NCBI GenBank assembly: GCA_963575745.1
Contig: CAUYUJ010000336.1
Coordinates: forward strand, 310,001 to 374,000
Origin: Prorocentrum cordatum
Taxonomy: Eukaryota
Direction: 5' to 3'
DNA: 64,000 nt
The translations under genes and the position numbers were made by a program. Below the pieces are notes generated by a model. It saw only the letters and a list, made by a program, of their open reading frames with translations. It had not been told where the DNA came from and made no database searches. Below, in pieces: positions 6,329-58,138 of the stretch. The stretch's first letter is position 1. Each line of letters opens with the position of its first letter.

Positions 6329-6920
6329 TGTATGAGCACACGCGGCCATAACCCTCTGTCGGGGAATCGCAGAGGATGGGGTTAGCACAAGCTGGGGTTA
6401 GGGAGCGCAGCCAGTCCCCCCTCTCCGAACGCCCAATTGAAATTACTCCCCATAGTCCCGCAGCATGTCTGCGGATTCCATCATCGGGGGTCTGACAGTC
6501 CCCCAGACCCATGGGGACGGGTTCTCACCATAATCTCGAGGGCAGTCCATGCGCTGCGACAGTAGCGTCCCAAGAGACTCGAAAAGAACTCCGACATCCC
6601 AAACTTCAGTCCTCCTCTTGCCCCTCCTCATCCTCCTCCTCCAAAATGTTATCCCCCTGACTGCCCCCATCAGGCACGAGGTTCAAGCTGACCAGTCGCA
6701 CTCGAGCAGGACATGTCCTGTCCTCGCGTGCCAGCAAGGTAATATACCAGGCCTCTGGCCCTAGCAATGGAGATAAGGCGCTCCTGAGCCACATCTTTCT
6801 AAGCATCCTTCGTTTCCTCCTCCTCCTGGGCCTTGGGCAATGTCTGCATCGGCGTCAATGTCAACGTTGCCACCCCTCCTCCTCCTCTTCCTCCTCCTCC
6901 TCCTCCTCCCGCTCCTCTTT

Positions 6921-6940
6921 CGTAGCCATGTTGGCTCAAG
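6921..6940 (+). other. Dinoflagellate spliced-leader relic
   Basis: CGTAGCCATGTTGGCTCAAG, 19/20 identical to the DinoSL 3' 20-mer CGTAGCCATTTTGGCTCAAG. Confidence 0.8.
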
Positions 6941-29789: not shown

Positions 29790-31790
29790 GTAGCACCCCT
29801 CCGCGCGCAGGGAGCCGCGAGGTCTCGGATGGGTCTGCGAAGCTTGCCATGCTGGTGGGCCTTGCAGGAGCCCACGAAAGTCCACCCAGGGAGCCGCGAG
29901 GTCTCGGCTGGATCTTCGTGCCGCCCCATTCCGTTGGACCTCCCAGGAGCCCACAGAAGTGGTGACGGTTGCGCATGTCGCAGCCCAGGCAGCCGCGAGG
30001 TCTCAGTCAGGTTTGCGTGCCACCCCACTCCGCTGCACATGCCAGGAGCCCACGAAAGTGGCGACAGTTGCCGACTTTGCAGCCCCCCAGGGAGCCGCGA
30101 GGTCTCGGCTGGATGCGCGTATCACCCCATTCCGTTGGACATTCCAGGAGCCCACGAAAGTGGCGACAGTTGCGCACTTCGCAGCCTCCCCCCCCGGGGA
30201 GCAGCGTCGTCTGTGGTAGGTTTGCGTACCACCCCATTCCACTGCACGCCCCATGGGCCCGCAACAGTGAGACAGTGACACTTCGCAGCCTCCCCATGGA
30301 GCCGCGAGGTCTCGGCTGGACTTGCGTACCACCCCACTCCGTTGGACACCTCAGGAGCCCCCGAAAGTGGCGTCGGTTGCGCACTTCGCAGCCCCCCATG
30401 GGAGCCGCGAGGTCTCGACTAGATCTTCGTGCCACCCCACTCCGCTGGACATTCCAGGGAGCACACGAAAGTGGCGACAGGTGCGCACTTCGCAGCCCCC
30501 CCAGGGAGCCGCGAGGCCTCGGCTGGATCTGCGTATCACCCCACTCCGCAGGGCGCGACCGTCGTTCACTTCGCAGCCCCCCAGGGAGCCGCGAGGTCTC
30601 GGCTCGATTCAGCTGGGCGTCCCAGGAGCCCACGAACGCGGCGACAGTTGCACACTTCGCCCCCCCCTCCCCCCAGGGAGCCGCGAGGTCTCGGCTGGAC
30701 CTGCGTACCGCCCCACTCCGCTGGAAGTCCCAGGAGAAAACGAAAGTGGCGACGATGCGCACTTCGCAGCCCCCCCAGGAGCCGCCAGGTCTGCTGGATC
30801 TGCGTACCACCCCACTCCGCTGGACATTCCAGGGAGCACGAAAGTGGCGACAGGTGCGCACTTCGCAGCCCCCCCAGGGAGCCGCGAGGCCTCGGCTGGA
30901 TCTGCGTACCACCTCACTCCGCTGAACTTCCCTCGAGCCCACGAACGTGGCGACAGCTGCTCACGCCGCAGCCCCCAACCCCCAGGGTCACGTCGCAGCC
31001 CCCCCCCCAGGGAGCCGCTAGGTCCCGGCTGGACCTGCGTATCGCCCCTCTCCGTTGGTCCTCACAGGAGCCCACGAAAGTGGCGACCATTGCACCCTTC
31101 GCAGCCCCTCAGGGAGCCGCGAGGCCTCGGCTGAATCTGCGTCAACCTCATTCCGTTGGGCTTCCCTCGGGCCAATGAAACAGGAGCCGTGATGTCTCGG
31201 TTGGATTTGCATACCGTCCCATTCCGCTGGACATCCCTTGAACCCGCGAACGTGGCGACAGCTGCTCACGTCGCACCCCCCCCCCCAGGGAGCCGCTAGG
31301 TCCCGGCTGGACCTGCGCATCACCCCACTCCGTTGGACCTCACAAGAGCCCACAAAAGTGTCGACGGTTGCCCACTTCGCAGCCCCCCAGGGAGCCGCGA
31401 GGTCTCAGCTGAGTCTGCGTGTTACCCCACTCCGCTGGACATTCCAGGGAGCCCACGAAGGTAGTGAAGGTTACGCACTTCGCAGCCCACTTCCCAGGGA
31501 GCCGCGAGGTCTCGGTTGGATCTGCGTACAGCCCCACCTGTTGGATTCCCCGTGCGCCCACGAACGTGGCTACCGTTGCTCACTTAGCAGCCCCCAGGGA
31601 GCTGTGAGGTCTTGGCTCGATCTGCGTGCCACTTACTCCGTTGGACCGCCCATTGAGCACACGAGCGTGGCGACAGTTGCGCATTTCGCCGCACCCTAGG
31701 TGGCCGCAAGGCCTCGGCTGGATCTGCGTATTGCCCAACTCCGTTGGGCTCCAAGGAGCACCCGAAAGTGGCGACAGCTGCGCAATTCGC
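29790..31790. repeat. ~100-bp satellite (~20 copies)
   Basis: Recurring GGGAGCCGCGAGGTCTCGGCTGGA...CCCACGAAAGTGGCGACAG...CACTTCGCAGCCCCC. Confidence 0.92.
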
Positions 31791-37689: not shown

Positions 37690-40061
37690 TTCAGACGGCA
37701 AAAACCTTCCACGTGTGCGTGTTCGTGGGGATCCAGAAACGTGCTCTTCCTGGGGTTCCCCTAGGGAAACGTCGGCAGCATGGAGCGTTGCTTCTGGAGG
37801 CGGGCTACTGGAGGGACCCCATACACCAACAAATCGACAGGCATTGCGATGACCTTGAGATGTGGCTTGCAGGAGGGGCACATCGTTCGACACTGGCTTC
37901 CACCAGCGGCTCTTGGAGGGCGTGGACTTGACATCCGAATACGACGAGTTGGGCTAGACCTGGCCACCATCGGCTCCTACTTCCCACCACGTCCACTAGG
38001 GCTTCAGGGCAAGCCGAATTACAAGGCGACCGTCGGCAAGCTCGTAGGTTCCGCTCCGTCTGTGCAGAGCTGGCTCAGACAACCAGGGTTCTGCCGAATT
38101 TCACTGTGGATTTGAATGATGGTGCGGGGCTTTCTTTATCTGGCGGCAGGCGGGTCTACACGGGCACCAGCACTGTCTTTGAGGGGCCGAGTACTAAAGA
38201 ACACATTCCTGGGGGCGCTGGGGAACAGATCCGTGGGCTGATGGAGGAGTTTGGTAGTGTGCTTCCAGGGCTTCGGGGCCGAGTCGAACCTACCTGGTCT
38301 AGAAATAAGGTTAATCGCAGAGTTGACTACATGCTCGGCCCCGCTGCGGCCGCTTCTCCGGTGCTTTCTGGCGGGCCCGCGATGCGCATCATGCGTAAAC
38401 ATCAGCTCATTCCCAGTAAAGTTCCTCGGGGTTATGCACCACTACATTTTGCCAGTTTCGATGGGGGCATGTTCGACCCCCCCCCCGGACAACGGTCCGA
38501 CCGCATTTCCTGGAAATTCGAGGCCATGAGATTCTCTGAAGGTCGCCAGAGTTTCTTGGAAGGGGCCACAGCTGCTTTAGTTCCGAAGGAGGCTAAACTC
38601 GCACAGGCTCCGAAGAAGGGCGTGCCAGATAGATACTTTGTGATTTTCAACGCCGCGCTGAAGGACACCGCAGCTCGTTTCTTCAGTGGTGCGCTGGCAC
38701 GATGTTCGGCTTCTTATCAAGAGCACGCGGTAGAGCGTCGCGAGCTTGTGAACCGGCGCCTTGAGCCTCGACTTCGGCTTTCACAGGCCGGCTGTTCTGA
38801 TGGGGGGGGGGGGGGGTCATTGAACAACCCAAGCAATGTAGTCGCGAGCGTGCTCAAGCTAGGAGACAACAGTATCGGAGATGGAGGAAGGAGGTCACCG
38901 ACGAGTTAGACGAGGCCTGGAGGGCTCGTAACTTGAAGGAGGCGCATCGCTTGATGCGACTTCTAGCTTGTGAGGGCAGGGCCCCTAGAGGCCGCAATTT
39001 ACGTCACTTGCAGGGTGCGCAGCTTGCTGCTGATGAATGGCTCGGCGTTTGGCGACTAGCGGACCCTCTTGGGGGAATGGGGGCGGTGGTGGTGGTGGCG
39101 GTGGTGCGTGCGTGGGGCGCGCGCGCGCGTGTGCGCGTGCGGGGGGGGGGGGGGGGGGCTCAACGTGGGGGAGAAGCAGGCCGGAGGTTATTATGGTTCG
39201 TATTCTGTTGAAGCTACAATGGACTTGGGTTCCATTGCTAAGTATCTCACCCATGCGCCGAAACGCCGAGCCTGTCCGCCGTGGATTGTACCTGTAGAGA
39301 TTTGGGGCATGATCGCGGACCCGAGGTTTGGTTTGAATCATTGTCGCTACGGACCGGGCGCCAACTTCCCGCTGCAAGCCGATTCGTTGCAGTCGATATT
39401 TGAGCACGGCCTTGTGTGTCAGGCTGGCTGGCAGATTTTCCGCGATGTGGAACCGTAGTTTCGGCCGTGCACTTCCCAGAAGCAGCCCCCCCGGTCCGAG
39501 AGGGAAGCGAGTTATTCACCTGCTCGATCCTTCAGGAAAAGCGTGGCTCGCGGGGGCCATAAAGAGACGCGAGTCGAAACTTCTGGGGCCATGCGACTTC
39601 GGTCTCTCGCGAGGGAGGAGGAGGGAGGGCGCCATGCTGGCTATTCAGATTGCCGCATCGCCCCAGGCGTAGTGGTCATAGCGCCTCTTTGTCTAATAAG
39701 GATATCAGCGACGCGTTTCCGTCGACGTCTCGGGAGCTTTGGGGGCGAGCAATGTCAGGTTTATTGGAACCCGAATATCCACCATTCGGTTTTCACATAT
39801 TTAAATCAGCAGCTAGTGTAATTCCACTTCGAGATCGCCCGCTCGTCGCTCGACCTAAAGGTGGGGCGCTGATGGGAGGGCCCGTGCGCAGTGGAGAGTT
39901 CTGGCAGAGCATATGAGCATCCAGTCAATGAGTGGAGCGCACAACTTCTAGCACCGCTTGGTTCGGAATAATGTTTGCGCGTCGAATGCTCCCGGCTAGT
40001 TTCGGCGAGGTTGATCTCAGTCTCGCTAAGTACGCGGATGACCTCGCCAAGCTTCACATCT
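37690..40061 (+). mobile_element. Decayed non-LTR retrotransposon (LINE), 5' part: endonuclease and RT up to YADD
   Basis: Endonuclease-like remnants (NKSTGIAM, GSYFPP, DLNDG, EPTW...RRVDYMLGP). RT motifs RVIHLLDPSGK, GRRREGAM, KDISDAFPS, GGALMGG, and KYADDL (YADD at 40031-40042). Confidence 0.8.
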
Positions 40062-40256
40062 TGTGAATAGAACCCGTGTAATACCCTCATATATATTCCT
40101 TATCCTCACCTCTCCTGCGCCTGGCCGTTTGGGCTCAGGTATTGGATAGATCGATCAGACCTTTGATCGTGCAGGAGGAAAAGATATCCATCTTTCCCTC
40201 CTTTCCTCTACCAACGGATCAGGGGTTCTGTACCCTTTGTACTCTAACCCCATACA
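40062..40256 (+). repeat. 5' LTR (~195 bp, TG...CA)
   Basis: TGTGAATAGAACCCGTGTAATACC...AACCCCATACA. Manual alignment to the 3' LTR gives 6 transitions and 3 small indels. The end could be 40256 or 40258. Confidence 0.93.
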
Positions 40257-40258
40257 CA

Positions 40259-40270
40259 GGTTATCAGCCC
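40259..40270 (+). promoter_or_regulatory. Primer-binding site, half-tRNA(iMet) type
   Basis: GGTTATCAGCCC directly after the 5' LTR. It is one mismatch from GGTTATGAGCCC, the complement of the initiator tRNA-Met anticodon arm (GGGCUCAUAACC), as in copia/Ty5-type priming. Confidence 0.75.
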
Positions 40271-40760
40271 TTTAAAGCTCACAGTTCATCGAACCCCGCG
40301 TCGCGATCTCGCACGCGGCCTCGATGGAACCCAAGCGGCGCATGCGCCGTAAGGGGTCCATCGGGGCCTCGCGTCCGAGCTCTCCGACGGCGCGACGGCT
40401 CGGTGATGAGTTGGAGAGCCTTAGTGTGGACCGTATAGGTGTCCCAGGCCCCCCCCCCCCCCCAGCTCCGACGGGCCCGAGGCGCGGCTAGCTGCTGAAC
40501 TTCACCGCCGCGCCGCCCGCGGGGGGACAGGAGAAGGAGTAGGAGCAGGCAGTAGGGAGTTTCACACGCCTACCTTCGATCCTCCATCTCCTCCTCCGTC
40601 GGGGGCAATCGCAACTGCGTCGGGCGAGAGCCCCGCTGGTCCTGATACTCCAGGGCGCTTTCGCGCTAACCGCCGATGGACTTCAGGTGCTGGCACGCCC
40701 AGCCCTGCGACCGTTCCCGCAGCGGAGCACGTAGCCACCTTCGAGGAACTCAGTAGACCA

Positions 40761-43337
40761 GTGGCGGCACAGCCGCAGACGCAGTACCCCAAAGTATCAT
40801 CTCATGAGACACCACACACACACACGGTCCTAGCCGCAGCTCGTCCTTGCGCAACCGTCGTGGGGCCACAGGCCCATGCGACGAAAGGGTGCCGATCCCG
40901 CGCGCTGCCTCGCAGAGGCCATGCACTCCTCGCGAGAGGGTGCCGAGGGAAGTTGACGCCCCCCACCTCCATTTCAGACGACCTGCCTGCGGAGACGTCC
41001 GCTGCAGGCGAGATAGCTGAGCTCAGAGACCAGGTTGAAACCTTCGTGTCCAGGCAGTACTCTGGACTACTGCAGAGCGTTCAGACGAACGCTGCCAACA
41101 CTGCTGCTCTACGCCAAGATCTTGACGGCGCCCTGGGGATCATTGGTTCCAGGATCGCCGAAGATCGACGCATCGTAGGTGAGCTGCAGTACCAGGTTGA
41201 CCGCGAGATGTCGCACTCAGGTGAACGATCGGCGATGGTCGAGAACCTGCGCAACTACCTCGCGCAGATGGAGCAACAGCTTGTGCTCGTACGCGACACT
41301 GGCGTTTCAGCAGTCAGGATCCTCCACGACGAGATCCATGACCAGCTCCGCAACCGACCATCACCAGCCGAGGCCACCGACCTTGGCGATGTTCAGTCTC
41401 AGATCAACGATCTTCGACCCCACATGGACCACACTACGGCGACGCTTCGCTCCGAAGCACACATCAACTCGTCGAACCTGATCGACATGTTGCAACGTAC
41501 TGAGAGAGTCATCACTCAAAGGCTTGATGCGACCAACGCTGTCGTGCAGCCACTCGCTAACCGGATCTCTGACATCGAGCAGCGTTTTCCTGGCGTACAG
41601 GACGCCCTGGCAGAGTTGCGTGTCGGACGAGCCCAGACCGGCCGGCTGGATTCTCCTCCCACGGTTTACGATTTCGCCCGCCTCACTGACAGGTTGCAGG
41701 AGATTGAGGAGGCGGCGGGCCACGCGCAGTTAGAGCTCTCCCAGGTTATTCGTGTGAGAGATACTGGGAAAGTACGTGTTGAGGGGCACCTCGCACGTCT
41801 GGAAAGTGAGTTGGAGGCGCACGGCGCCCGTCTCCGAGCCTACGAGCAACGACGCGATCGGCATTCACAACGCTCTCGGGATACTGATGAGTACACACGC
41901 CAAAAGGTGGAACATATACACGAAGATATGACGTGCTGGAGAAATCAGCTGATTGACCACACCAACGACAACACACTTCACCTTCAACCTGCAACCGACC
42001 TTCACAGGCCGACGGCAGCGTCCGCCGAAGCACCACAAGCTTCTGCAGGACAACAACGACGTACGTCACCAGGAGCAGCCTCCGCGGCAGCTTCAACACA
42101 GACACGACACGTGTCTCTTGTGCGCACAGAACCCCTTACCGACGGTGCCCCGATACCCTCACAACCGTTGTCTGCGGTTTCGGTCAACACCACTACTCCT
42201 ATCAAGGAGTCAGACACCGTCCGAGTCCCTGTCTTGCCTAAGATCACGCAGCTGCTTGAGTGGCAGCAAAGGGTACAGAAGAACTTTGGAGCCGCCTCAG
42301 GGCGACCTTCCAAAGCATATGCCTTCCTATGCGTGGCTGAACAGCCCGAGTGTACCTTCGAGGACTTACAAGACAGTGGCGACTTTGAGAGCATCGATTG
42401 CAAACGCGCGACTGCTCTCAGCGACATCTGATCCTCATACTTGCGCTACCAAATCAGGCTCATCGAAACCAGAGATCACAAAGCAGGACGCATGCTCACA
42501 GGACGCCAGATCTACTGGCACATCCTACAGTCCTACAAAGTGACAGAGGTCGATGGCGACCTGCACGACTTCGAGCGCCTCAAAGAACTGAGGATGCGAG
42601 ACGATGGTTTTCAACGTTTCATTACTGATTGGGACGCTTTACTATTGGAGTGCCGAGAGGCACCCGATCCAAAGATCTTGGAATCTCTGTTTCGCACACA
42701 GATTCGCAGACATGCCTGGATGAAACAAGATATGTACGAATACCAGCGCATGAAGATCAGCGGCCCGAATCGTACCTATGATTGGCTCCGACAGCGCGTC
42801 CTGGACGTACTGGGGCTGAAACAATTCGAGAATAATCAAAATAAGTTACGGTACGAACATGAGACTCGTTCTCAAGTCAATGTATGCGCCGCCTGGAAGA
42901 CAGGCAACTGTCGCAATGGTGATCGATGCAAGGCTTTGCATACCTTCTCCAGGGATTGGAAGAGCACCAGATCTTCCAGAGCATCGACCGCAGGCGGCAA
43001 CTCCCGCCGCAGCGTTTCAGCCCCTGCGAATCCCAAGAAGCCAGCATCGAAGCCATTTTGCTTCGAGTTCGCCAAGCGCAACACATGCACCAGAGGCGAC
43101 AAGTGCAACTTCCCACACATGGCGCAGTGCAGAGACTTCGCACAGAATAAGTGCACCAAGGGCGACAAATGCGAATACGCTCGCCTGGCACCTGGTGCGC
43201 AGACATCCGAGCGAAGCCCGAGTCGCCCACGGACCTCCAGTCAGGACAGTCGTGGCCGACCACCATCCCGCGGATCAGGGAGCCAACGCTCTTCACAACG
43301 CGGGGGGGTTCCGCCATGCAAAAGACTCACACCATAG
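40761..43337 (+). pseudogene. gag: Copia Gag-like polyprotein: coiled-coil N-terminus, capsid-like region, three CCCH-type zinc fingers
   Basis: ORFs 40761-42431 and 42441-43337 share a frame and are split by one TGA (42429-42431). Fingers CAAWKTGNCRNGDRCKALH, CFEFAKRNTCTRGDKCNFPH and CRDFAQNKCTKGDKCEYAR. Position between PBS and protease. Confidence 0.8.
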
Positions 43338-44034
43338 ACGTGACAATGGACGCCAATACGACCGATCTCGATCATCCTCCAGGAGGTCTCCAGACTCTCG
43401 CAGTCAGCCGAGAAGTCGCCACGACAGATCTTCGCGATCTACCTCCCGAGGACGAGACAGCCGTGGCGGAGGACGTGGCAGCCCACGTGGCCGCGATAGA
43501 TCATACGGTAATGACAGAGGACGTGGCCGACGTTCCACGAGCCGCGGTTCGTCCCGTGGTTCTCCCCACTTCAGAGCACGCTCTCCTGCCAACTATCGAC
43601 GTTCTCGCCGCTCCGACCGCAGTTGCGTCATACGTGACAAGACCCTCATGGCCTCCACTAAGGCCACTACAACTTCCACCAAACCACGGCGTCGGATACG
43701 TTTTGACACACATAATGTGGAATACTACACGCACATCGTCTCCGGCAAGGCCAGACTGGATAAGTGGAAGGAGATGCCGAATGAGGGCGACATTGTCAAA
43801 GTACCAGACCCGCTACCACAATGGTGGTGGAAACAGAGTGCCGATGCCCTACAACATTGTCAACGGGAGGCACAATTATGGCACACAGATCTACATGACT
43901 ACCGACACAACAGGGGGTCGGTGGTCACGCCAACTGCGATTCCAGATTCTGATGGCTCTACCATACAGTCATCAAAGACACCCCAGACGAAGACAATGAC
44001 TTCGTAAGTCGACCCTCCACGCTCGACCGCTGCG

Positions 44035-46323
44035 TTGGCACGCCCCTGGGTTCTCGACAGTGGATCTGCACATCATGTTCAGGGCAAAAACGAGCTGACG
44101 CAGACCGAATCGGATCGCATATCTGTTCGCGAGGAGCATCCTCTGGAAACCGCCAACGGCGACCGTACTGTCAACGAGCACTACGACATACGGCTTCCCG
44201 AGGTTGGCTTACACAGTTCAGCCCTCGCCTTGCCAGATTGCCCATCATTACGATCAGTTGGGAAATTGATTGAGGTTGATGGCTTTCGGCAGCTTTGGGA
44301 TCCAGAGCTGGGCTACTTGCTTCAGGATTCGGGGGGCCAATGGTATAATATTCCAGTCAACAACAGAGTTCCAGAATTACGACTCGACGACTTGGCGATG
44401 ATACCACCGCCACGACTATGCACTTCATCAGCACCCAGACGTCGTCAGCGCAAGCGTTCATCCGCCCGCTGCAACGACATATGCTGGTGTTGCAAAACTG
44501 CAGAGCAGTCACCACCTACAGATGAGCTGCGGCCCCACATAGGGACCTGTCCCAAGAGACCACATGTCGGCAAGGGAGGAGGAGCACGGACCGCCACGGT
44601 CGAAGAACCTCCCGACACATATAATGCCGAGTCCGACGTGGACACACCCACCGACTCGCTTACGTCTCAGATGCAGTGTTCTCCTCCCGCATGCGGGGGG
44701 CTTGCAGATACAGCTCAAGCAGATACCGACATCACGTCGACCTCCTTCAAGGATCTGCCGATGGAGACGCTCATCACAGTGCACCATGGTAGTGATCGTG
44801 TTCTTCCAAACAGACAAAAGAAACCGATTGATCCTATGCGCTACATGACCCACAGTCCGAAACGCCCAGACTGTGAGATTTGTTCTCGCACGATGGCGCA
44901 GGGCGCTCCGTGCCGAAGACAGCACAGACCACATCCACCGTCAGACCCCGCCGACGAGGACACAGCCTACGAGGCCTTTGTCCCGGAGAAGTTCGGGGAA
45001 GCTCTAACTGCCGACCATGTCGTTTTGGCCAAAGACGATGCCGCCGACAAGCGCGGCGACAAGTATGCACTTGTCGTCCTGGATAGATACACCGGCATCT
45101 TCATGGCATACCCAGCATTACACAAAGACGCAGCTATTACAAAGGCATCCTTCCAGCAGTTCATCGCCGCGAACGATGAGGTAAAGCACATCTACACAGA
45201 CAATTCTGGAGAGCTTCAGAAGGCATGCCGCCAACTGGGATGGAGACATGACGCTAGTACTCCTCATCGTCCACAAACGAATGGATTGATCGAGCGCATT
45301 ATCAAGATCGTCATCCTCGGTGCGAGAGCTGTGTTGCACATGTCTGGTCTGGGACACGAGTGGTGGAAAGAGGCCATGCAAGCCTTTTGCTGTGGACATA
45401 ACTTTGCGCATCCATCCACGGGCGTTGCTGCCCTCAGCGAGGAACACGCCGACAAGACGGCTCATGAAATACGTTTTGGAGAAAGTTTTCCCGGGCACTG
45501 CGTTCCCTTTGGTGCTCGGATATTTTGGAAATGCTTCAATCCCGAGATCAATAACGAGACTGCAAAGTTCAAAGAGAATGCTCGAGAAGGGTTGTTCATG
45601 GGTTACCATTTACACTCCGGTGGACGATGGTCTGGTGATTATCTCGTCTTGGACACGGCTACATACGCCAAGAACCCCGACGGTGAGCTGTGTCACGTAC
45701 ACAGAGTCAAGGATATCATCATCCCCGACGGCAAGTTCACCTACCCAGTGAAAGAGGGTACCCTGCGACATCACAACCCTGAGGCACACGACGAGGTCAA
45801 GGCATCCACTTCTCGCCCCTTGGGCGACAAACCTATGCCCGACCCTCCACTTGCTTATCCTAAAGAATGGGATGACCCGTCTATGATGACGATGGACGAC
45901 AACATCGTTGATACCCACCCATCAGCCTCTGAGGTTGCTGCACCAGCACCGGAGCCCGACTACCGGGAACAGCGTGGATATTGCGTCATCAGACACATAC
46001 GTACTCCACGCAGGAAATTGTTCATACCAACGGACGATGTTAGGAACATACCTGTACCTGTTGATCAGCTCGACGTGACACGAGACTTCGAGACGACCTC
46101 TACCTTCGACGGAGAAAGTGTCTTTCGCGATGTTTGGGGCGGTGTCGGCGCCAACGACCACCGGGAATTGAGTGGGCCTTGGACCGGACTGGCTCGATTC
46201 TATGAGCTCCCCAAAATGATGCTCGACGGCAAAATGGCGGTCCGCGGCCGCGAGACACGCGTCCAGACCACTACGCGCCCAGACCACATTCTGCCCGAGC
46301 ATTGGAAGACATTATCTCGATGA
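44035..46323 (+). pseudogene. pol: Copia Pol: aspartic protease and integrase
   Basis: Protease PWVLDSGSAHH; zinc-binding THSPKRPDCEIC; integrase core TADH...LDRYTG...IYTDNSGEL...STPHRPQTNGLIER; post-core GLFMGY. Ends at an in-frame TGA (46321-46323). Confidence 0.92.
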
Positions 46324-49110
46324 CAACAAAAGAAAGAGATCGAATACGCCGAAGATGTCAAACGAGCTCGTGAGATTCGTGACCGAGCCGCACTTCGAGC
46401 GCGGACCCGACAGGACAAACAGGCCAAAACATTCCGTACCACTACAGCTGGCGGACCCACATGGAATATCGTGGAACGACGGATTACGTACGATACCGAC
46501 AGCGGCGCTGTCATCCGTGACGAGGACGACAAGGGCGTGATCAACCAAGAAATTCTGTATGCCAAACTACCTGGTGGACCACGTGACATTACTACAGTAC
46601 TATACTACCGCCAACCCTCACCACAGCCTGCTGGAGCTGCACGTGCTCTGGTACTTGTCGACAGCGAGGGGATCGACTTCGGGGCCGTGAACCCGCTCGC
46701 ACGCAAGTTCCCCCCGTCGGTAGCAGTGCCCACTATGCCACGTGAGCCGACATACGCACCGGCACACAGAGACAATATTCCTGATTCACCGTGGGCACGC
46801 CCCGCCTTTGTTACCAGAAATTTGAGTAAGAAAGAAGTTGCTGCAGAACCACGCGCACAGGAGGCCCTGCGAAAAGAATACGAGCGACTTGAAAAGAAGC
46901 AAACGTGTATGTTGGAGACTGTTGCAGAAAAAGCTGATATTGAATCACAAGCGATTCGTGCTGGGACGAAGGTTCACTTCTTCAATATCCTGGAGCTCTC
47001 TTCAGTCAAACATGAGGAACTTGCTCCTGATTTACGTAAGTTCAAGGGCAGAGTGGTGGTTCAGGGCAATACCGGCAAAGACGAGACCGGATTGGCCGCC
47101 ATATTCGCCGACGCCGCATCCAGTGCTTCGCATATCGAGGCTTCCAAACTTTGCGATGCTACCGCACTATTGCCACAATATGCGGGCGAACAAAGTGATG
47201 CACCTGGAGCAAACACGCAGGCATTGTTATACGGCGACGGACGAATCGACCCAGTCGATATTTGGATTACCATACCCAAGTGGCCCCAACCTGCATCTTG
47301 GTCTAAATACAAGAATCCCGTGTGCCGATTACGATTGGCACGATGCGGACATCCTCTCGCAGGTGTTTTTTGGGAACGAAAGTGTCGCACATGCCTGGAA
47401 AGTGTTGGATTTGAGCCTATTCCAGGCTGGGAATGCGTGTGGAGACACAACAAACTGGGACTGATACTTCCAGTATATGTGGACGACTTCAGATTAGCAG
47501 GCCCAGCCATCAATCTACAAGCCGGCTGGGATTATATCCGCAAAAGCGGCTTTGATTTGGACCCGCCTACTCCATACTCTCAATACCTTGGCCGTGGACA
47601 ACAGGCATGCGACGTACCGCAGAACATCTTTGACAAAAGAATGTCTACCATTTGACCTATGTTGCCTGCACGCAGTAATAAAGATTACCATACAGCTAAA
47701 CAAGTTCGTGGAATACGACATGACATGCTTGGTTTTACTGATCAGTGTACTGAGCGGTACCTGGAATGCGCTTCCAAGCGTACCCAGGGGGAAGGGTCAC
47801 GTCGTAAACGGTCCGGCTCACCGAGGGCTTCGCGACCCAAATCGCCTAGCTCCTCCGGGTCGGTCGCGAGACCCACAAGCGTGCTCAACGCGCGACCACG
47901 ATCGTCCAGCCCAGCTAGATCGGTCGACAAACATTCCACTACGACAGATTCAACAACAGTCACATACGATGACCTTCCCGACGCCGAGACTCCTGGCATC
48001 GAGGACACCTCCTTCGCCGAGTCCGACTACTCCGACGAGGGTATCTTCGGCCAGGACGCGGCGAGTGTATTGATGAAGATTCTCTACCTGGCACGGTGCT
48101 GTCGTTTCGATCTTTTACATCCAGTATGTATGCTAGCCAGAGAGATTACCACATTGAATACCACGTGTGATAAACGCCTACATCGGTTGATATGCTACAT
48201 CAAAACGACGCGTACTCATTGTTTACATGGATGGATAGGCGATTCCTCAGACAAGCTCGCCATCATGCTCTTCACTGACGCCTCGTTCGCCGATTGCATT
48301 ACCTCCTCCAAGTCCCTTCACCGGCATCTTCGCCGCGCTTGTTGGACCCAACACGTTCTTCCCGGTCAATGCCGTGTGCAAGAAACAAACGGTCGTATCG
48401 CACTCATCCACAGAGTCCGAGATCGTTGCTCTTGACTCAGCAGTACGACTGGAAGGGCTACCACTACTCTCATTCTGGGAGGCCGTGGTGGAGGTTGCCA
48501 GCACTTGCAAGGAGAAGAATACTTGCCCGGGCTGCCTGGGACGCGCCGCCACGGCGACATGTCCGACATTGGCCGCCAAAAAGAAGAGGCGCAAGCCATC
48601 GCCTCGCAAGGCGCCCCCCACGCGGGGATCTTCCCCTAGCCGTAGGCAGCTACCGCTGAAGATGGAGCCACTTACGCCTCCAAAGAGGCGCACGATATCC
48701 CATGAGGGTACTGTGTTACACGTGGATCCAGAGCCTGCTCAGGAGAGCAGCTCTCCCAAAGTACATCTCATCGTCCGCGAGGATAACCAGGCCGTGATCA
48801 AGATTGTCCAAAAGGGACGTACACCAGCACTTCGTAATCTTCATGGTACTCATCGTATAAGCTTGGATTGGATATGCGAGACATGCCACTTCGAACATAT
48901 GAGCTCATGTATGTAGGTACAAAAGAGCAGATCGCAGATATGATGACCAAACATTTTGAGCCAAAGAAAGCAGACCTCTGGAGGGACATCTTGGAGCACT
49001 CACTCATCTTTCCTGTTACTCCGGTACAATGTGCTCCAAAGAACCCATGGAGACCACTACGAGGGCCTCGGAGGCCCGATGGTTTACCTCATGTTGCAGA
49101 ACCTCCATAA
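46324..49110 (+). pseudogene. pol: Copia Pol: reverse transcriptase and RNase H
   Basis: RT motifs FKGRVVVQG, QSDAPGANTQA, VYVDDF (YVDD 47476-47487), QYLG. RNase H motifs FTDASFAD, SHSSTESE, EDNQAVI, TKEQIADMMTK. In-frame TGA at 47653 and frameshifts near 48315 and 48890. Confidence 0.92.
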
Positions 49111-49489
49111 CTGGATGGATGTCCGGAAGTATGCAAAATATTACTTACAGAGAAAGAGAAGTGGGGCGAGGTAGGATCAGAATGCGGAATGATGTGTGTT
49201 GGACAAGCCAATCACGAGGGCATATGTGCATGCATGTACCATATCGGTGTCCCTGCTGCAGCTACCGATTTGCGCACACCTCGATCGAGGGCACGTTCAC
49301 CGCACGGTAGACAACCCCGCCATCCTCCCTCACCACCGCACGACACAGAGAGGTCTAGGACACTTATTGCACGTTCGTGCCGCAGCTGTTTTACGACTCG
49401 AGCGACAAAGCTTACCAGCATCCTGCTCGCCGTGTGCGAGACGCAATCAAGTGATATCGGTTATAATCCCGATCCCCCCATCCCCGAGA

Positions 49490-52400
49490 TGGATCAGGCA
49501 CCGCCGCTCCACCTCGACGGCTGGGCCATCGCCTACGACGCCGAGCACGACCCGAACGCCAAGGGCGACGACCGCGTGGGCTTCACGTACCGCGCTCAAG
49601 CAGGTCGCCCTCGCGATCCCGAGGGTGGCTTTGCATGCGTACATCATCAGCGCTTTGATCGTAGTGCCGAGTATGATCTACGTGTTCCCGACGAATCCAC
49701 TCTGTCGAAGTTGCCCGCTCCGCGTCCGCCGACGCGACGAGTTGGATCGGCAAAGTTGATGGAGGAGCCGGCGGCAACGCCAACTACGAAAACAGTACGA
49801 CCACGGCTACGCCATGGATGTCACTCATGAGAGCCATGTGCATGATCTCCAGCCTCTTCACACTTAATTCTTCTGTACAAGAAAGGGTTCGTGGCTTCCA
49901 TGATCACTTGCATGCCGTGATTCCAAACTCACACCGCAAGTGCCCACCGATGGAGCTCACGACAGTGGTATTAAAGGCAGAGTGGATGATGATGCATCAT
50001 GATTGGTCCAACGTTGGCAGTGCATTTCTTGGGCAATACGCCGAGGACAGCGTTCAGGACACGAACTACTTCTATAGAGATGGGCTTTGTGCGCCTCACG
50101 ATGTATACAATAATGCATTGACAACTCCCAGTTACGCTCCTAAACTTGATCGCGCTGCCGTAGAATTACCCGCACGTCCACCTGGCATGGCCAGGGCACC
50201 AGATACTGCGGGACACCTCGGCCACGTTGTCGAGGATAACCTTGTCACCGAAAATGAGGGCGTTCTCCGATCTCACCCAGACAGGCATATTCCGCCGCAA
50301 GCTCAGCACGCGGTTGACTGCACGCGGAGGCTTTGGGGGCATCGGGTCCAACCCCCAGACGGTGGCAACGCCATCCGATCACCCAGACGGCTGGAAAACC
50401 TCCCCAGACGACGTTGATCATTGGCAACCATACGAGGAGGGAGCTGTGCTGCCCAGCGAAATGCCTACCATGGAGGACCCTGGTCTTAGTACTCCTGGTA
50501 ACGATATTGATCCGCTAGAGCTTGCACAAGCAAAATACAGTGCGTTTTGTGGTGGTCGCTTGGTTTCTACCCTTCTTTGAGACAACGGGTGGCATTCACT
50601 CATACAGGAGGACCTGAGACTTCTTCTACATCATGCGTTTGGCCCGTCAGGACACGCATACAAATGGACAAATCTGAACACGGACTCAACATGGATCATG
50701 CACCCCAAGAAGGGTTCCAATACCGCCAAGCACAAGAAGTATCCCACCCAAGGCATCGACGTGCTCAACAGCCCACAAACGCGAGACGCTCTTGCTAAAG
50801 CATCAAACGTTGGTACCGTACCTTTGTTTACGCCGTGTCTCAATCGTGCAGAATACATCGGTGGCGCCACCCTCGAGCACTTGTCGACCGTCATCCGCGA
50901 TGACATCATGATGTGGGCATTCTCCTTTGGCAGTTACAAAGAATGGTTCAAACAGAACGACACGGCGATCGGCCAGGACTGCATTCCATTGCCAGAGGCT
51001 GGTGGCGACACCCGCTGTGATATGGCACAGCTCCGTGAACAGCGTACGCAGACAGGAGAACCGTATCACAGCTACCCTTGCAAACCAGTTCGAGTCGACA
51101 CCCGAGCAGCGCAACATGATCCTCCTGATCCGCAAGGCCAGGGGTTTGTGGCTGATGAACGACAACGCTTCTATTAAGGAGTGGCGTAACTTGAATGAGG
51201 TTATATGGGACTACTGGGCTAAATATTTTCCTGCATTTGTGAAACAGAGGCACAACTGCAGAGGCCTCAACGCCATGGTGGTCTGGAGTGCAAACGATAT
51301 TGCATGTGCAAACCACTGTCAAACTACGTTGGGCACGTCGCCATGAGGATCGTGCCCATACTTCCGTGCGCGAGCTCATGAAGATGGAGTGCGAGGGTGG
51401 CGTCCCGACGCTTATGCCAGTACACGTACAAGTGGAACGATCACGCTTTGTTGACGTGATGCAGTACTTTCGTTGCCCCACGGTCATGGGGCCAGGCAAA
51501 GCGACACAATGGGGTGTACACCCGACCTTCGACTACCACACGGGCAATCTGATCAAGACGATGCAATCACGTGGTATTACCGTCCTTCCATCAGACCACT
51601 GGGTCGACGCTTACGACAGGATTCGACGCATAATAATCACAATCAATCTGGCGATGTTTGCGACTCAATTCTGTGATGCTGTATGTTATCGCAACTTCTG
51701 CGCGTTGATCCAGTCGTTACCATCTCAGCCTTATCCATTCAGACCTCCTGTTCTGACTCCAGTCACGGACGCACAGGCCTATACACAGGCCAAAGAGATT
51801 ATGGAGGCCCTTCAATTGCGATAAAGGATAACCACTGAGATGAAGAGAGATCTCAGCCTCACGACGCTGATGACTCATACTGCTGGAGAGATGGCTCATT
51901 GCGCTTGGATGGCATCTTGTGCCAGTGGTACTTTGCCAAAATCAATGCCGTTGGCATCAGGCGATCCATGCGTCCCTATTCCTGGACTCGCAAAAGAGCC
52001 ACCAGCACTTGATCCTCGCGATCCCACCAAGGCTATTCCTCATGATGATCCATTTGGCCATGCATACGACGACTTGTTCAACTACCTTCTGCTTCTGATC
52101 AACGACTGCCCCGGGGCGTGGGCATCTTGGGATTCACCTGAGAAACAAGAGTTCGTTCATCCCAAATTTGTGAAAGAGATTCAGGATGCACACGCAGTCA
52201 CCTGGGTCGTGTACGAGCAGTTCCTACAGCAGATTACTGCTTTGGACGGCGATGGCGATTCGACCAAATCACGCATCATTGCAGAGGGCAACAGATTGAG
52301 CTCCCACCGTATTGGTCCTGCTATCGACAACCAGGACACCACTACAGCATGCAACGGATTCTTTACACAGAATGCCTTGGATCGGCTCGCATGTGGACTT

Positions 52401-55400
52401 GAGCCCGACGTCCCAACTACCTTCTGGCGGGCGGCAGCTGAGACAGACCAACAGACCGAGGTCGGGCAGCCAGCGCAACCAGGCCCACTGCCTGAACCAT
52501 TGCAGCCTGGCCCGCAGCCGATCCCTCTGCCAGAGCCATTGCCGACTGGCCCACTTCCGATTAGCACGCCAGCAGATCCATCGCCACCAGACCAGCGACC
52601 GACAGCCGCGTCAGTTCCGACCCCTGATGACGACACTGACATGGAGGCGGCGGAGCTGGAGGCAACTCCTGCCGACGACGATCCTTCTCCCGTCACAGTA
52701 CACAAACTGTCATGGCAGGACAGTTGCGAGCGTTCCCTGTACGAGGACATCAGCCAGATCGCGACGTTCGACAATGCATGCACTCTTCGTGAGTACAAGC
52801 TCCAAGCAGGCCTCGTGGATGATCACCCATACGTTCCCCCTCCGTTGCGGGGCACGTCCGCCACCAACGGCATAGCTTGCTTGCAAGACGATGAGGGGGC
52901 GAGTCAATTATCGTATGACGACTGTGTGATCGCCCATGCGCCCGACATCGTTCAATCTGGCTGCTTCCCAGAGTGGAAATGCATATCGCTCCCGCCGTAC
53001 GACGAGGTACGCTATGGACCCGAGCTGCTGGACGACTGGCTCGGCGACCCCGTTTGGATGAGCAAAGGCATCACGACGATGCTACGCCATGAGATCCACT
53101 GCAAAAGTTTCATATCAACCAATTCAATGATCGACGTGTCAACATATGGCCGAAACCAACACAACACGAGTGGACGATTCCAAGCAATTGGGAATCGTTT
53201 CAGGATATGGTTGAGTGGAAATTTCGAGACCGCGCAGTCCACAACGGACCATCCACCGAGGCGGCCATAGCACACTTCAACAAGGATGGTGAACCAGACG
53301 GGTACTTGGATTGGACGGTTTATTACCCGATCTTTGTTATTCGTGCGTTCCAGAAGCACATTGACCCGGAGAAGAACCGGATCGATGTATATGCCAAACC
53401 AGTTCCTGACGGTGGCGACCCCAGCTGCTTCGATTGGAACGGCGTCATCGCTATCAGATGCGTTGGAGGGCACAGTTGCGTCAACCAATTCTCCAAACCA
53501 TGGAATATGGGCTGGGAGAGCTTGCAATGGACAGACGTGAAGTACCTCCACCATGGCACAACATTTTGTGCACGGCGAAGCATCCTCAAGTCAGGGATTA
53601 TTCCAGGCTACATCGATCCATCTTCTCAGAGAGACAAACACTTTCGCGGATCACCACGCGCGGAGGAATTCTTCAGTTCCAGCACCTACATAGACAACGT
53701 TGAGAAGAATCCTCATACCTCGGTACAACCATACAAGTTCAACCACTACAGGAACGAGGTCGAGCTGGTGATCAACATGGAGATTGCCACAAAGGCTGGG
53801 AGCAGATTTTGGCTGGGCGCACAAGGTGCTACCATGACCGAGGATGTGGTACCAGCCGCCGCAGTCATCGCCACTCGCCGACTCCAACCACGCCATGAGC
53901 ATGGCCGGCAGATCTGGCCGGAAGGCAGTACCTGGGTTTACCCACCATTGGCTGCGAGACAACCATTGAGCAGATATGAGATTTGCGCTGTTCCTCCTGG
54001 GACAGACATGATCGACGATCCTCTTGGGATTGCACCAACTGGCATGGCACAAGACACGGCCAAGAAGTCAACACAGTCCGCTTCAGCATCATCGGCCCAG
54101 CGACCAATCGCCCCTCAGCTGGGGGCGACCCCCGCTGGCCACAGCTGACGCCGACGCTTTGGATGAAGAGATGGTCCGTGCTATGATTGACAGTTGTGGG
54201 CACAATACACAGGATACAGAATGGTTGATAGCCATGTCACATTGCCGAGAGGCCCTGCGACTTATTACTTCAAAGATCACACAGAGAGATTGGAACCGAC
54301 GGCCTATATTCAATGACGTTCGCATGGGGGACTTCATTATTGTCAAAAATTGGGGATCTACCAATTGCTACCACTACGACAATCACTTCCCCAAGGGCAA
54401 CCACAACACCAAGGTGCTCATGAACAAGGGCCACATATATGGTCCAATCATTAATTTCGGAGTCTTCGATAAGTTCTTTGCGGTACAAATACCGATCCTC
54501 GACTTAGGTTTACGATGGGTAAACATATGGTATTGCTGCCAAAACATGCCTCTCAAGGGCGTTGTCTTCGCTTTGCCAGTGCGTACCGACATCGACCCGA
54601 CGCACATGAATATCGCACTTGAAGGCCCCTCTTCATGCAGCGACCAGATACAGTTACATAAAGTTTCTGGTGACCTACCATATCTTGGAATGTCGAGCAT
54701 TTATAAGCCACGTATCCCGCGTACACCGACCAGACGCCCCGCTCCTTGGACACCAGATCCCGACGAGCTGGTGGCCACACCTGCCGAGGATCCCATTGCA
54801 GAAGACGTTGGATCCCGACAAGAGGCAAAGAGCCTCTGGCCACTGTCATTGTGGATATATCTACCACCCCACTCACAGATGAGGAGAAGGCAGCCAATGA
54901 CATCACGAGGGCAGACTTATCGGCTGATATCCAAGCTGATGAGGACATCGGCTCGAGCATCCTTGCTAATATTATTGGCCCGCCAGAGAACTTCCTCAAT
55001 CACCCCGACTACGACGCAGAAGAGGACACGATATGGATCTTGCAATCCTACGACCCCCGCATATACCGCTGGACGTCGGAGTTGTTGGTGGATTCACCTA
55101 TGATAAAAGTGAAACAAATTATCGAGGTGCATACTGGCAGGGACAAGATTGTAGTGGATCAGATAGAGTCATACTTACGCTTTGACATACAATTTGGACC
55201 AAAAACAGATATATATATATATATATATATATACCACATGTATTACAATCATACCCACAAGTGGGCACGCGACTTACCGATTTGCAGCGCAGATAGTTTC
55301 TTCAAACAGATTGCACACTACCTGGACCCAGAGGTCATCGAGGAATCGACCACAGGCATATTTCAATGGATCTCGAAAGTGTACCAAATCATATTGTTGG

Positions 55401-57197
55401 ACAGCATCAAGGAGCTACGTGATTTTACAAATGATGTTATTTACCAGAACCATCCTGCCCTCAAGACGTTGCGCGACCTCTTCACACAGTGCATCGAGAC
55501 ACATGGCAACCCAGGCTTCCCCGTATGGCGGGAGCCGGTGGAGACACCTGCCGCGCCTCATGAGGATGAACCAGGCGCTGAGCAGGATACTCCCCGTGAC
55601 CCAGGCAGCGTTGCTTCCGCAGCTCCAGACCAAGAAACCATGGTACAGATCATAGCCGAGCAGAGGGGGGTCGACCGCAAGATTGGCGACAATGAGGTCG
55701 TCTTGCAGGCAGAGGCTAACCGCATCCGCACAGACAACATGCATCATGGTGTTCCTGACGCTGCGGACAACGACCCCTCCGAGTACGCAGGACTACCTGG
55801 GGAAACATTGTCTAGGATCGAGATCGAGGGGATGAGCCGATCGATCGCCTCACGCCCGACCGCTGAGGTCAATCGAGATGCCATGGATCAGATCGGCCGT
55901 GTTCTCGCTGGCGGTATCGACACCCGCTGGGGATCCCGTGAGCACCTCGCGATTCACGGGACCCCATGCCAGATCCAGCACGATATGCGATGTCGGAATT
56001 GCGATCGTCTCTTATCCCTCGGAATCGTCATAAGTGACGGTACCATTTGTGATATCTGCTGGCAGTACACGGTCGCTGTAGGTGCTACCGGCAAAGGTGG
56101 CGCCGCGGAGAGCGACCTAGCATACCTCCAGAAGTTGACCGACTGGATCAAGACGACCCTCTCTCAAGACGACATCGCCAGGTGTATGTCAGACGGGGCC
56201 AATGTCCAGATGACGGGCAAGCGCTCCTTGGCTGGTCAGCAAAAGGATAACTTGAGGAGATATGCGAAGAAAGCCGTGGAGAGGTATCAGAAGTGGGTCG
56301 ACGCAGGCTCCCCTCCTGCACACATGTGCAGGTTGATGGGTGAGTCTGACGACGACGGACCTATGCCACCCCTTCGCCAATCTCGTTCACCGTTTCCTGA
56401 ACGATGTAAAGTTCCACCACCAAATGACAGCCGCACGTGTCAATAGAGGCGACGAGGCCTACACTATTGAGGACATGCGGGACGCCTGTGATATCCACGA
56501 TATCAGTGTTAGGACTGGCCAAGCTGGTCGGAAGAAATGGTGGTTGAACACAGGCAGACTCGATAGAGGCACGAGGCAGGAGCGCGGACTCATCGCGATT
56601 GCCCTTCCCCGCGGGGATGGCACTCGCGAGAAAGTCACGCAGCGCAAGCTTGCCGTGCTTGCCTCCATCGAACCCGCCTTGGGCTCCACAGGTCAGAGGG
56701 GGGTTAGTTCAGAGATCGGAACCGATCCGATCGATCCTGATACATACCCTTCACATTCTCATGGCGCCATGGAGCCACACCTGCCGCGGCGCCCGCCGCC
56801 GCCGCCGCGCCCCGCTCCTGGCGACGCTGCTGGACCCAGCGCCTCTGGCGCGCAGGGCGACGCGCCCGCTGGGCCGCGCGGCGCAGCCGCGCAGCGGCAG
56901 AGCGGCGACGACAGCCGCAGACCCACGACACCTCCCCGCGCCAAGAGGGCGCGCAGGACGGAGGACTACGCGACGTGGTGGCGCAAGAACCTAGAGGAGA
57001 GCCAGTGGGGCCCCAGGTGCGGGGGCTACTACGCCAAGTGCTGGGTATACATCGCGGACAACAACGATGAGTTCGTGTACGCCAGCGACCGCCACTGGAC
57101 CCCGAGGACGCCCTGGGAGACCTTCGCGACGAGCTACGTCGCGGGGGATGGCCACAGGGTGTGGGACCAGAGGTTCTGCGCGAGGGGCGACGCATAG
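49490..57197 (+). pseudogene. Extra giant ORF inside the LTR element (~2500 codons, frameshifted), multi-domain
   Basis: Overlapping + strand ORFs (49189, 49818, 50227, 50698, 50927, 51288, 51840, 53207, 54024, 54746, 56340) tile the region with protein-like composition, consistent with one ancestral ORF. The start is inferred. Confidence 0.75.
53055..53870 (+). pseudogene. Tpt1/KptA-like RNA 2'-phosphotransferase (NAD+-dependent ADP-ribosyltransferase) domain within the extra ORF
   Basis: Motifs in KptA order: SKGITTMLRH (53061-53090), EKNRI (53369-53383), IRCVGGHS (53453-53476), YLHHGT...SILKSGIIPG (from 53543), RAEEFFS (53657), LVINMEIATKAGSRFWLGAQGATMTEDVVP. One frameshift between the first motif and the rest. 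Confidence 0.82.
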
Positions 57198-57920
57198 CGT
57201 AGTCGGCCGCGAGGCCCACCGCTCGATTGGCTCGAACTTCATCTTTATACAAGTTCGCCTCGAGCGGTGACTAACCATATCATTTTAGGCCACTTCACGA
57301 TCCAAGAAAAGTGGCCACATCTACCCTTGTGAAACCCAAGGCAGCCTCCTAAGGAGCAACGCCGAGGGGAGTAACGATATGCAGAATTTATGTATGCAGC
57401 TTTTCGTGTTTATCAACGCGACTTTGCGTCTGACCAGACGTTTGTTTTTATGTTTAGACGTGTTTCTTAACACGATCGTGTTCCTCAGCACGACCTCATA
57501 ATACACATTTGTTCTCGCTTATTCTCTACAGTATGTTCAAATTGCGGTGAGAATGATTTGATGCCCAGTTCTAGTTTGAGAGCTGGTGGCAACGCCTGCC
57601 GCGCTCAGGCGCGGCAGCTTCCGATGTTGCTTTAATTGATCAGATCATCTTGCTCCGCCCGCCCGCGTCTCATTCTTCTCCGCCCTCGAGTGCCGAAGCG
57701 TTTTGGGGGGGCGCGCCGAGGGGGCACCAAAGTGTGCTTGGCGAAGAAACAGGGACCCTGTGTGTTCCTTCTTACCTTATCTTGCCTAATCGTGAACGCT
57801 ATCGCGATTGGGGCGCAGCTGACGCGATACAGATTTCACGCTCAGCTGCCTGACAGACCTGAGGATTTGAGGAGTAAAAGGGTGACGGGATCTTTTCTCC
57901 TGTTCCCGAGTCCTGCCCTC

Positions 57921-57942
57921 GCAGGCGGGATTCGGGACGGGG
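57921..57942 (+). promoter_or_regulatory. Polypurine-tract-like sequence
   Basis: G-rich GCAGGCGGGATTCGGGACGGGG immediately 5' of the 3' LTR; imperfect purine tract. Confidence 0.55.
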
Positions 57943-58138
57943 TGTGGGAATAGAACCCGTGTAATACCCTCATATATACTCCTTATCCTCACCTCCCCTG
58001 CGCCCGGCCGTTTGGGCTCAGATATTGGAATAGATCGATCAGACCTTTGATCGTGCAGGAGGAAAAGATATCCATCTTTCCCTCCTTTCCTCTACCAACG
58101 GATCAGGGGTTCTGTGCCTTTGTACTCCAACCCCATAC
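57943..58138 (+). repeat. 3' LTR
   Basis: TGTGGGAATAGAACCCGTGTAATACC...AACCCCATAC, matching the 5' LTR; the terminal A is missing. Confidence 0.93.

Follow-up and report, generated by a model that had tools for sequence, protein, structure and literature searches.

A putative half-tRNA primer-binding site and a Tpt1/KptA-like domain in a decayed copia-type retrotransposon of Prorocentrum cordatum, best read as independent characters

Introduction

Does a retrotransposon that carries an RNA end-processing enzyme use it to prepare its own primer? The question is raised by 64,000 nucleotides of DNA from the dinoflagellate Prorocentrum cordatum (contig CAUYUJ010000336.1, positions 310,001 to 374,000 of the forward strand; this whole stretch is called the window below, and all positions are counted from its first letter). 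The window holds a long terminal repeat (LTR) retrotransposon in which a putative primer-binding site (PBS), directed at the anticodon arm of a transfer RNA (tRNA), stands directly behind the 5' LTR, and a domain resembling the RNA 2'-phosphotransferase Tpt1/KptA lies far downstream. A first-pass annotation had joined the two and proposed that the element encodes a system which heals the end of a half-tRNA primer. Our favoured reading, to which we assign a probability of about 0.6, is that the site is the internal-tRNA PBS of a decayed, high-copy copia-type element and that the Tpt1 cargo is genuine and independent of the PBS. What is unusual about this PBS is its company, namely an outsized copia-type element with conserved Tpt1/KptA-like cargo.

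A primer-binding site of the half-tRNA class

The putative minus-strand PBS, of the internal-tRNA (anticodon stem-loop) type, is GGTTATCAGCCC at 40259..40270 on the plus strand. It starts at the first base 3' of the 5' LTR, which occupies 40062..40258 on the same strand (197 bp, termini TGTG...CACA) and forms a direct repeat with 57943-58137. The first 10 bases after this LTR contain no TGG, and the annotation was therefore right that the site is not of the TGG type. It agrees at 11 of 12 positions with GGTTATGAGCCC, the complement of the initiator-tRNA anticodon arm contained in an oligonucleotide printed as ...GGGTTATGAGCCCTG... (PMC2965216), and at 10 of 12 positions with the probe against the initiator methionine tRNA (iMet) of a vertebrate, the zebrafish, that was used for comparison (GGTTATGGGCCC, ...GGGTTATGGGCCCA); both are initiators of other organisms, and these two oligonucleotides were all that a search of papers for the sequence of the site yielded. 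The motif by itself is not rare in the window, as GGTTATSAGCCC with at most one mismatch occurs twice where 0.68 occurrences are expected, and two are also reached in 13 of 100 shuffles. The non-random part is its placement against the LTR: the chance that a 12-mer at an offset of 0-2 from an LTR end differs from the initiator-type complement at no more than one base is ~7e-6 if equal base frequencies are assumed. ARAGORN found no tRNA in the window.

In such an arrangement the tRNA segment paired with the PBS would be nucleotides 29-40. The primer would accordingly have nucleotide 40 as its 3' end, within the 3' strand of the stem of the anticodon arm, and the anticodon's first base, nucleotide 34, would face the odd base of the site, C at 40265. 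If copia and Ty5 are a guide, a 5' fragment of the tRNA, terminating in this strand of the stem, would anneal to the PBS, and the reverse transcriptase (RT) would extend it into the LTR. Priming from an anticodon-arm fragment of the initiator tRNA, on which the first-pass annotation had built, is documented for copia (Kikuchi 1986 as cited in PMC10275265) and for Ty5 (PMC5371799; bioRxiv 2025.04.25.647736), and internal-region PBSs are reported for the Candida elements Tca7, which uses iMet, and Tca2, which uses tRNA-Arg(UCU) (PMC4139406).

Like Drosophila copia, yeast Ty5 and Candida Tca5/Tca7, the window element has a PBS that abuts the 5' LTR, lacks TGG and would complement an anticodon arm, and it shares with them the order protease (PR) - integrase (IN) - RT - RNase H (RH), the TG..CA ends of the LTRs and a polypurine tract. 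Unlike in these elements, its PBS is 1/12 off the initiator complement, at the base opposite nucleotide 34. The elements compared are ~5-6 kb long; in contrast, the window element measures ~18 kb and has CCCH fingers in its gag and a ~9.5-kb 3' extension with the Tpt1-like domain. As judged from its sequence, the PBS falls into the copia/Ty5 half-tRNA class as an ordinary representative, with one base unexplained.

A conserved Tpt1/KptA-like domain

The second part of the locus is divided between two frames of the plus strand. The start of the Tpt1-like domain at 53058..53105 is MSKGITTMLRHEIH, an SK...LRH motif with the candidate Arg-His of the catalytic tetrad, and stands in the frame of the open reading frame (ORF) 51825-53270. 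The rest of the domain, at 53093..53890, is in another frame and contains IAIRCVGGHS (53447-53476), LHHGTT (53546-53563) and PRAEEFF (53654-53674). The frameshift between the two parts lies at a CAAAAG run (~53100-53106), and the fragments P0010, P0011 and P0021 run through the LRH stretch without any frameshift.

An exhaustive HMMER search returned 46 relatives of the Tpt1 region at E<=1e-3, mostly short metagenome fragments. Seventeen relatives were scanned for PF01885, and three of them reached its gathering score of 26 bits (P0051 with 51, P0044 with 43.5 and P0035 with 27), the match of P0051 spanning profile positions 15-176 of 177. Four more gave sub-threshold scores (P0048 25.8, P0023 23.2, P0009 21.7 and P0005 13.6), and a match was absent in the remaining 10 of the 17. 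P0051 is linked to the window ORF by BLASTP at 9e-13, with AMRAIQGHS/AIRCVGGHS, FHGT/HHGT and ARSETFFS/PRAEEFFS pairing up, and the IR..GH, HGT and R.E.F.S motifs persist in relatives of 28-81% identity. The window copy itself matches phrog_5470 'RNA 2'-phosphotransferase' weakly (E 0.041). When the family profile A1 was compared with the PDB, all nine matches at E<=10 were RNA 2'-phosphotransferases, the best at E 0.021; as a single sequence, the window copy (P0001) found nothing relevant in the PDB, and P0001 had no match among longer proteins.

An AlphaFold2 model of the window domain, built on a 37-row alignment, reached a predicted local distance difference test score (pLDDT) of 70.2 and a predicted template modelling score (pTM) of 0.62; the C-lobe is its well-modelled part and the LRH segment lies outside the model. 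Foldseek placed only Tpt1/KptA structures at ranks 1-21 (E 3.3e-5 to 8.8e-3). In VIA-align the top 18 entries were likewise all Tpt1/KptA, with Z 9.4-11.9, a root-mean-square deviation of 1.5-4.4 and 89-152 residues aligned, and other ADP-ribosyltransferases reached Z of at most 7.9. The nearest three clusters in the ESM Atlas are Tpt1/KptA as well (0.88-0.84), which we take as a lead only. The catalytic tetrad of Tpt1, Arg-His-Arg-Arg, is defined in PMC10622864, and candidates for all four residues are present: Arg-His in MLRHE (in the other frame), Arg in IAIRCVGGHS and Arg in PRAEEFF. The latter two align with P0051 and with the PDB Tpt1 6e3a, and the Arg-His pair is assigned by motif position only.

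The domain thus resembles Tpt1/KptA (PF01885; PDB 9ld4, 7yw2, 8tfz, 1wfx and 6e3a) in its two-lobe fold and in the aligned IR..GHS, HGT and R...S motifs. Unlike these proteins, it has an insertion after the PG motif and, in the window copy, no Pfam match. The distance from LRH to IR..GHS is ~130 residues, against ~48 between Arg14 and Arg62/63 in archaeal Tpt1 (PMC10622864). It also sits within a retrotransposon, whereas cellular Tpt1 is a stand-alone gene of ~180-230 amino acids. On the evidence of family profiles and modelled structure, the Tpt1/KptA-like domain ~13 kb downstream of the PBS is genuine cargo, conserved in the family, and in this the first-pass annotation is borne out. Most likely, the domain would use NAD+ to act on phosphates in the RNA or complementary DNA (cDNA) of the element itself, and candidate activities would be the removal of an internal 2'-phosphate or the ADP-ribose capping of a 5'-phosphate.

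The relatives that carry organism names are of two kinds. P0005, P0021, P0003 and P0004 are transcript fragments labelled Pyramimonas sp. CCMP1952 (a green alga, EukProt) and are up to 81% identical. In P0043 the N-lobe fragment is embedded in a chimeric gene model that carries the names of two dinoflagellates, Prorocentrum cordatum and Polarella glacialis. Two explanations offer themselves, a wide distribution of the family or contamination behind one of the labels.

A decayed copy of a large family

The window copy is an old, inactivated member of a high-copy family. All three stop codons occur in frame in it, and its reading frame changes many times, the frameshift inside Tpt1 being one instance. 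Contigs of four runs were aligned to the element at >=85% likeness, with the element split into 30 bins: 8373 and 10704 contig pieces of two organism-labelled runs align to it, two marine metagenomes do likewise, and all 30 bins, those of the 3' half included, are covered in 4/4 runs. At the stops at 42430 and 51822 every aligned contig has another letter than the window copy. Since all contigs read these stops otherwise and the coverage is wide, the window copy is to be seen as a decayed member of a large family. Summed depth over 49.7-57.6 kb is lower than in the 5' half, and in each of the four runs it rises locally at the Tpt1 bin; since parts of a gene cannot be ranked by contig depth, no firm conclusion is based on this.

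The viral contigs searched contained neither the Tpt1 piece nor the RT ORF, and the metagenome contigs searched contained neither the IN ORF nor the pattern of LTR end and PBS (0 matches). A shorter version of that pattern had three matches among viral contigs, all in low-GC phage-like contigs without other likeness to the element, and these were judged to be due to chance.

Are priming and cargo coupled?

With both parts in hand, the proposal of a single system can be weighed. It states that Tpt1 readies the tRNA-fragment primer by removing a terminal 2'- or 3'-phosphate, or that it caps RNA or cDNA ends with ADP-ribose, and it would, if true, describe the first RNA-end-repair activity borne by a retroelement for its own priming. 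Its premises stand: the half-tRNA PBS and the Tpt1 domain are genuine and belong to the same element, and the candidates for the catalytic tetrad are in place. The coupling between them, however, finds no support in the analyses made here, and we regard it as very improbable. RNase P leaves a 3'-OH on its product, and a primer made by this enzyme would thus need no healing. The tRNA nucleases that form cyclic phosphates usually cut in the anticodon loop, whereas the primer end predicted here, nucleotide 40, lies in the stem. It is to RNase P-mediated cleavage that a review ascribes the primer end of Ty5 (PMC5371799). Moreover, half-tRNA PBSs occur in the ~5-6-kb elements copia, Ty5 and Tca5/Tca7, which are described with only gag-PR-IN-RT-RH (PMC10275265, PMC5371799, PMC4139406); half-tRNA-primed Tca5, for example, is given as ~5.6 kb with gag and pol only (PMC4139406). 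Therefore, such priming needs no Tpt1 encoded by the element. It favours healing that a subset of Tpt1 enzymes is reported to turn a terminal 2'-PO4 or 3'-PO4 into OH and to cap a 5'-PO4 (PMC6573784, PMC10622864), but the removal of terminal 2'- or 3'-phosphates is described for some Tpt1 enzymes only, those of human, Runella, yeast and E. coli perform it poorly, and the removal of a 3'-phosphate stalls at an ADP-ribosylated intermediate (PMC6573784). Tpt1 acts on a phosphomonoester (PMC6573784), so that a cyclic phosphate should by mechanism not be a substrate, and a cyclic phosphodiesterase would have to open a 2',3'-cyclic end beforehand. Domains of cyclic phosphodiesterases, kinases or ligases were not found in the three plus-strand frames of the element with Pfam, NCBIfam, PHROGs and PADLOC. 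A variant of the proposal, in which the primer tRNA would be a spliced one and Tpt1 would remove the 2'-phosphate from its 37/38 junction, inside the segment paired with the PBS, shares in the same very low credence; we know of no initiator tRNA genes that carry introns. The PBS type would instead be an ordinary inheritance of copia/Ty5-like elements without Tpt1. A single clade with both traits would lend little weight to a coupling, and by comparison with these elements PBS type and Tpt1 cargo are best regarded as traits independent of each other.

Several points weigh against the reading that we favour. The case for treating PBS and Tpt1 as independent is drawn from other families and not from Tpt1-bearing relatives. 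The Tpt1 stretch of the window copy is without a Pfam match, the N-lobe profile A3 finds no Tpt1 in the PDB, and the scores of the window copy for rve and RVT_2, the Pfam families of its IN and RT, both stay under the gathering cut-offs. The match of 11/12 at the PBS is to the initiators of other organisms and not to the host's own tRNA-iMet. The mismatch is a G-to-C transversion opposite the first anticodon base; G>C makes up ~3% of the differences between copies (44 of ~1470, run X1), and among the best 40 of 2648 contig-difference rows there is no unanimous difference at 40265, which is a weak indication. Since G>C is rare and no unanimous difference is seen, a simple private decay at 40265 fits poorly. 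The best 40 of the 2648 rows contain none for 40259-40270 at all, from which agreement of the copies over the PBS does not follow. The cargo, for its part, could be inert baggage, a captured fragment of a host gene or part of a foreign insertion without a role in the life cycle. The frameshift in Tpt1 of the window copy, the breakup of the whole 3' half into at least nine ORF pieces, the lack of any other recognisable domain there (Pfam, NCBIfam, PHROGs, PADLOC, ESM Atlas) and the N-lobe fragment in the chimeric dinoflagellate gene model P0043 would all agree with this. We nevertheless hold it to be unlikely: there is no second long direct-repeat pair inside the element, the Tpt1 region is on the sense strand, the motifs IR..GH, HGT and R.E.F.S are retained down to 28% identity, the LRH piece is unshifted in three relatives, and contigs of all four runs cover the whole 3' half. 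The odd base of the PBS, finally, gives some room to another primer, a tRNA with G34 or I34, that is, tRNA-Ile with the anticodon IAU or GAU, with which C at 40265 would pair and the PBS would match at 12/12. Both I34 and G34 pair with C, and I is read as G by RT. TTATCAG, the loop part of the PBS, complements a CU-[G/I]AU-AA anticodon loop exactly. The spectrum of changes among the copies, which makes private decay by a G>C transversion improbable, and, weakly, the lack of a unanimous difference at 40265 point the same way. Internal priming by another tRNA than the initiator has a precedent in Tca2/gamma, which uses tRNA-Arg(UCU); unlike the window element, Tca2 is described as a 6.4-kb element without Tpt1 (PMC4139406). 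We consider priming by tRNA-Ile a tentative possibility and lean slightly towards the initiator tRNA-Met, which would leave one position, opposite C34, unpaired. The hallmark of initiator tRNA is an anticodon stem closed by three G-C pairs, and the PBS carries the corresponding three-G/three-C stem. Human and Arabidopsis tRNA-Ile(AAU) have U30-G40 where the PBS demands G30-C40, which lowers the match to 10/12, and to our knowledge no retroelement is primed from the anticodon arm of tRNA-Ile.

If the initiator tRNA is the primer, that of the host would read GGGCUCAUAACC-like in nucleotides 29-40 of the anticodon arm, and the mismatch at position 34 would be either tolerated by the family or a decay in the lineage. 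The odd base opposite position 34 is a clean and cheap handle on the question of which tRNA primes the family.

Novelty and meaning of the cargo

A full-text literature search, in which most matches were judged by their listing, found no description of a Tpt1 domain in any transposable element. A Tpt1 domain in a retrotransposon thus appears to be undescribed in the searched literature. The role of Tpt1 outside fungal and plant tRNA splicing is treated as an open question (PMC6573784, PMC10622864), and a selfish element that keeps the enzyme is a natural setting in which to ask which nucleic-acid phosphate it acts upon.

Structure of the element

The element is an ~18-kb Ty1/copia-type LTR retrotransposon, three times the usual size of this type. 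Along the plus strand the domains follow in the order PR (44053) - IN (44782-45300) - RT (47476) - RNase H (48271), and the position of the integrase upstream of the reverse transcriptase leads to the Ty1/copia assignment. The 3' LTR spans 57943..~58137 on the plus strand, and 188 of the 202 columns in the alignment of the LTR pair are identical (~93% identity), the others being 8 substitutions and 6 gap columns. The polypurine tract, recognised by reading the sequence, is AGGCGGGATTCGGGACGGGG at 57923..57942 on the plus strand, directly 5' of the 3' LTR. The two LTRs differ at their last three bases, the terminal bases being CATACTCG in the 3' copy and CATACACA in the 5' copy (flanks 40057-40061 and 58138-58145). 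A 5-bp target-site duplication was not seen, CATCT standing before the 5' LTR and TCGGG or CGGGC after the 3' LTR. The missing duplication and the unlike LTR ends together suggest a deletion at the 3' end or a recombination between copies, and with the 3' LTR end altered, the target-site flank may be lost. A second long direct-repeat pair was searched for inside the element without result, and blastn and tblastx detected no further copies in the rest of the window. The 33 other ORFs of the window with at least 200 amino acids each are without a Pfam family at E<=0.001; therefore, the window offers no second retroelement for a comparison of PBSs within the host.

The gag-like region (40425..43337, plus strand) consists of a coiled-coil-like ORF at 40425-42431 followed by tandem CCCH zinc fingers at 42432-43337 (Pfam zf_CCCH_4 4.4e-11, zf-CCCH 8.6e-8). 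The TGA between the two is private to the window copy, the letter at 42430 being the one at which all aligned contigs of the four runs differ. In copia-type gags the place of these tandem CCCH fingers is usually taken by a CCHC knuckle. The element leader contains a run of 15 C at 40449-40463.

Protease and integrase follow at 44008..46323 on the plus strand, with LDSGSAHH at 44053-44076, an HH..CC finger from 44782 and a D,D35E core at ~45073-45300. Reverse transcriptase and RNase H occupy 46324..48435 on the same strand, with YVDD at 47476-47490 and TDASFAD at 48271-48294; two in-frame TGA codons, 46321-46323 and 47653-47655, break this region. The integrase matches Pfam rve at 4.4e-6 (27.3 bits, gathering score 32.6) and the reverse transcriptase matches RVT_2 at 1.8e-5 (24.9 bits, gathering score 31.6). 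These are the top and only RT/IN Pfam families matched in the element, and scores below threshold indicate a divergent, decayed copy.

The 3' extension at 48436..57922 on the plus strand is ~9.5 kb long and coding-like, in at least nine ORF pieces in shifting frames. Outside the Tpt1-like part, no domain is recognised in it by Pfam, NCBIfam, PHROGs or PADLOC; the latter three were run on 10-11 ORF pieces, and the weak phrog_5470 match was the only result. The ORF 54707-56443 has neither a match in the ESM Atlas nor a homologue. A Cys/His-rich stretch (…HGTPCQIQHDMRCRNCD…ICDICW…), at an estimated ~56150-56330 in ORF 54707-56446, resembles a small zinc-binding module and is without a family match. 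A (TA)n microsatellite lies in the 3' extension at 55197-55243 and was skipped as a repeat during contig alignment. Rfam gave no match at gathering score in the window and none at E<=1 in the element, which is therefore taken to be without a ribozyme or tRNA-like RNA.

Among dinoflagellate elements, Symbiodinium SmTCL1-4 are likewise copia-type LTR elements with IN upstream of RT (PMC5776459). Compared by description only, they are presented with IN, RT, RNase H and LTRs, and the account of them mentions no Tpt1 and gives no PBS sequence (PMC5776459).

Other features of the window

Outside the element, TTCGTAGCCATGTTGGCTCAAG at 6919-6940 matches at 20 of 22 bases what we take to be the dinoflagellate spliced leader, and it ends 5 bases 5' of an ATG. 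A weaker spliced-leader match lies at 741-755, and the 15-base core with at most two mismatches occurs twice in the window against 0.11 expected. By its sequence, 6919-6940 looks like the relic spliced leader of a retroposed gene, which makes a dinoflagellate host probable. At 30000-31730 there is a loose array of 9-11 repeat units of ~100-107 bp; their mutual likeness is 60-98%, and a C-run and a GGGAGCCGCGAGGTCTCGGCTGGA core, the latter conserved, mark them. The segment 63100-63550 contains two long tracts of GGA/GAG trinucleotides.

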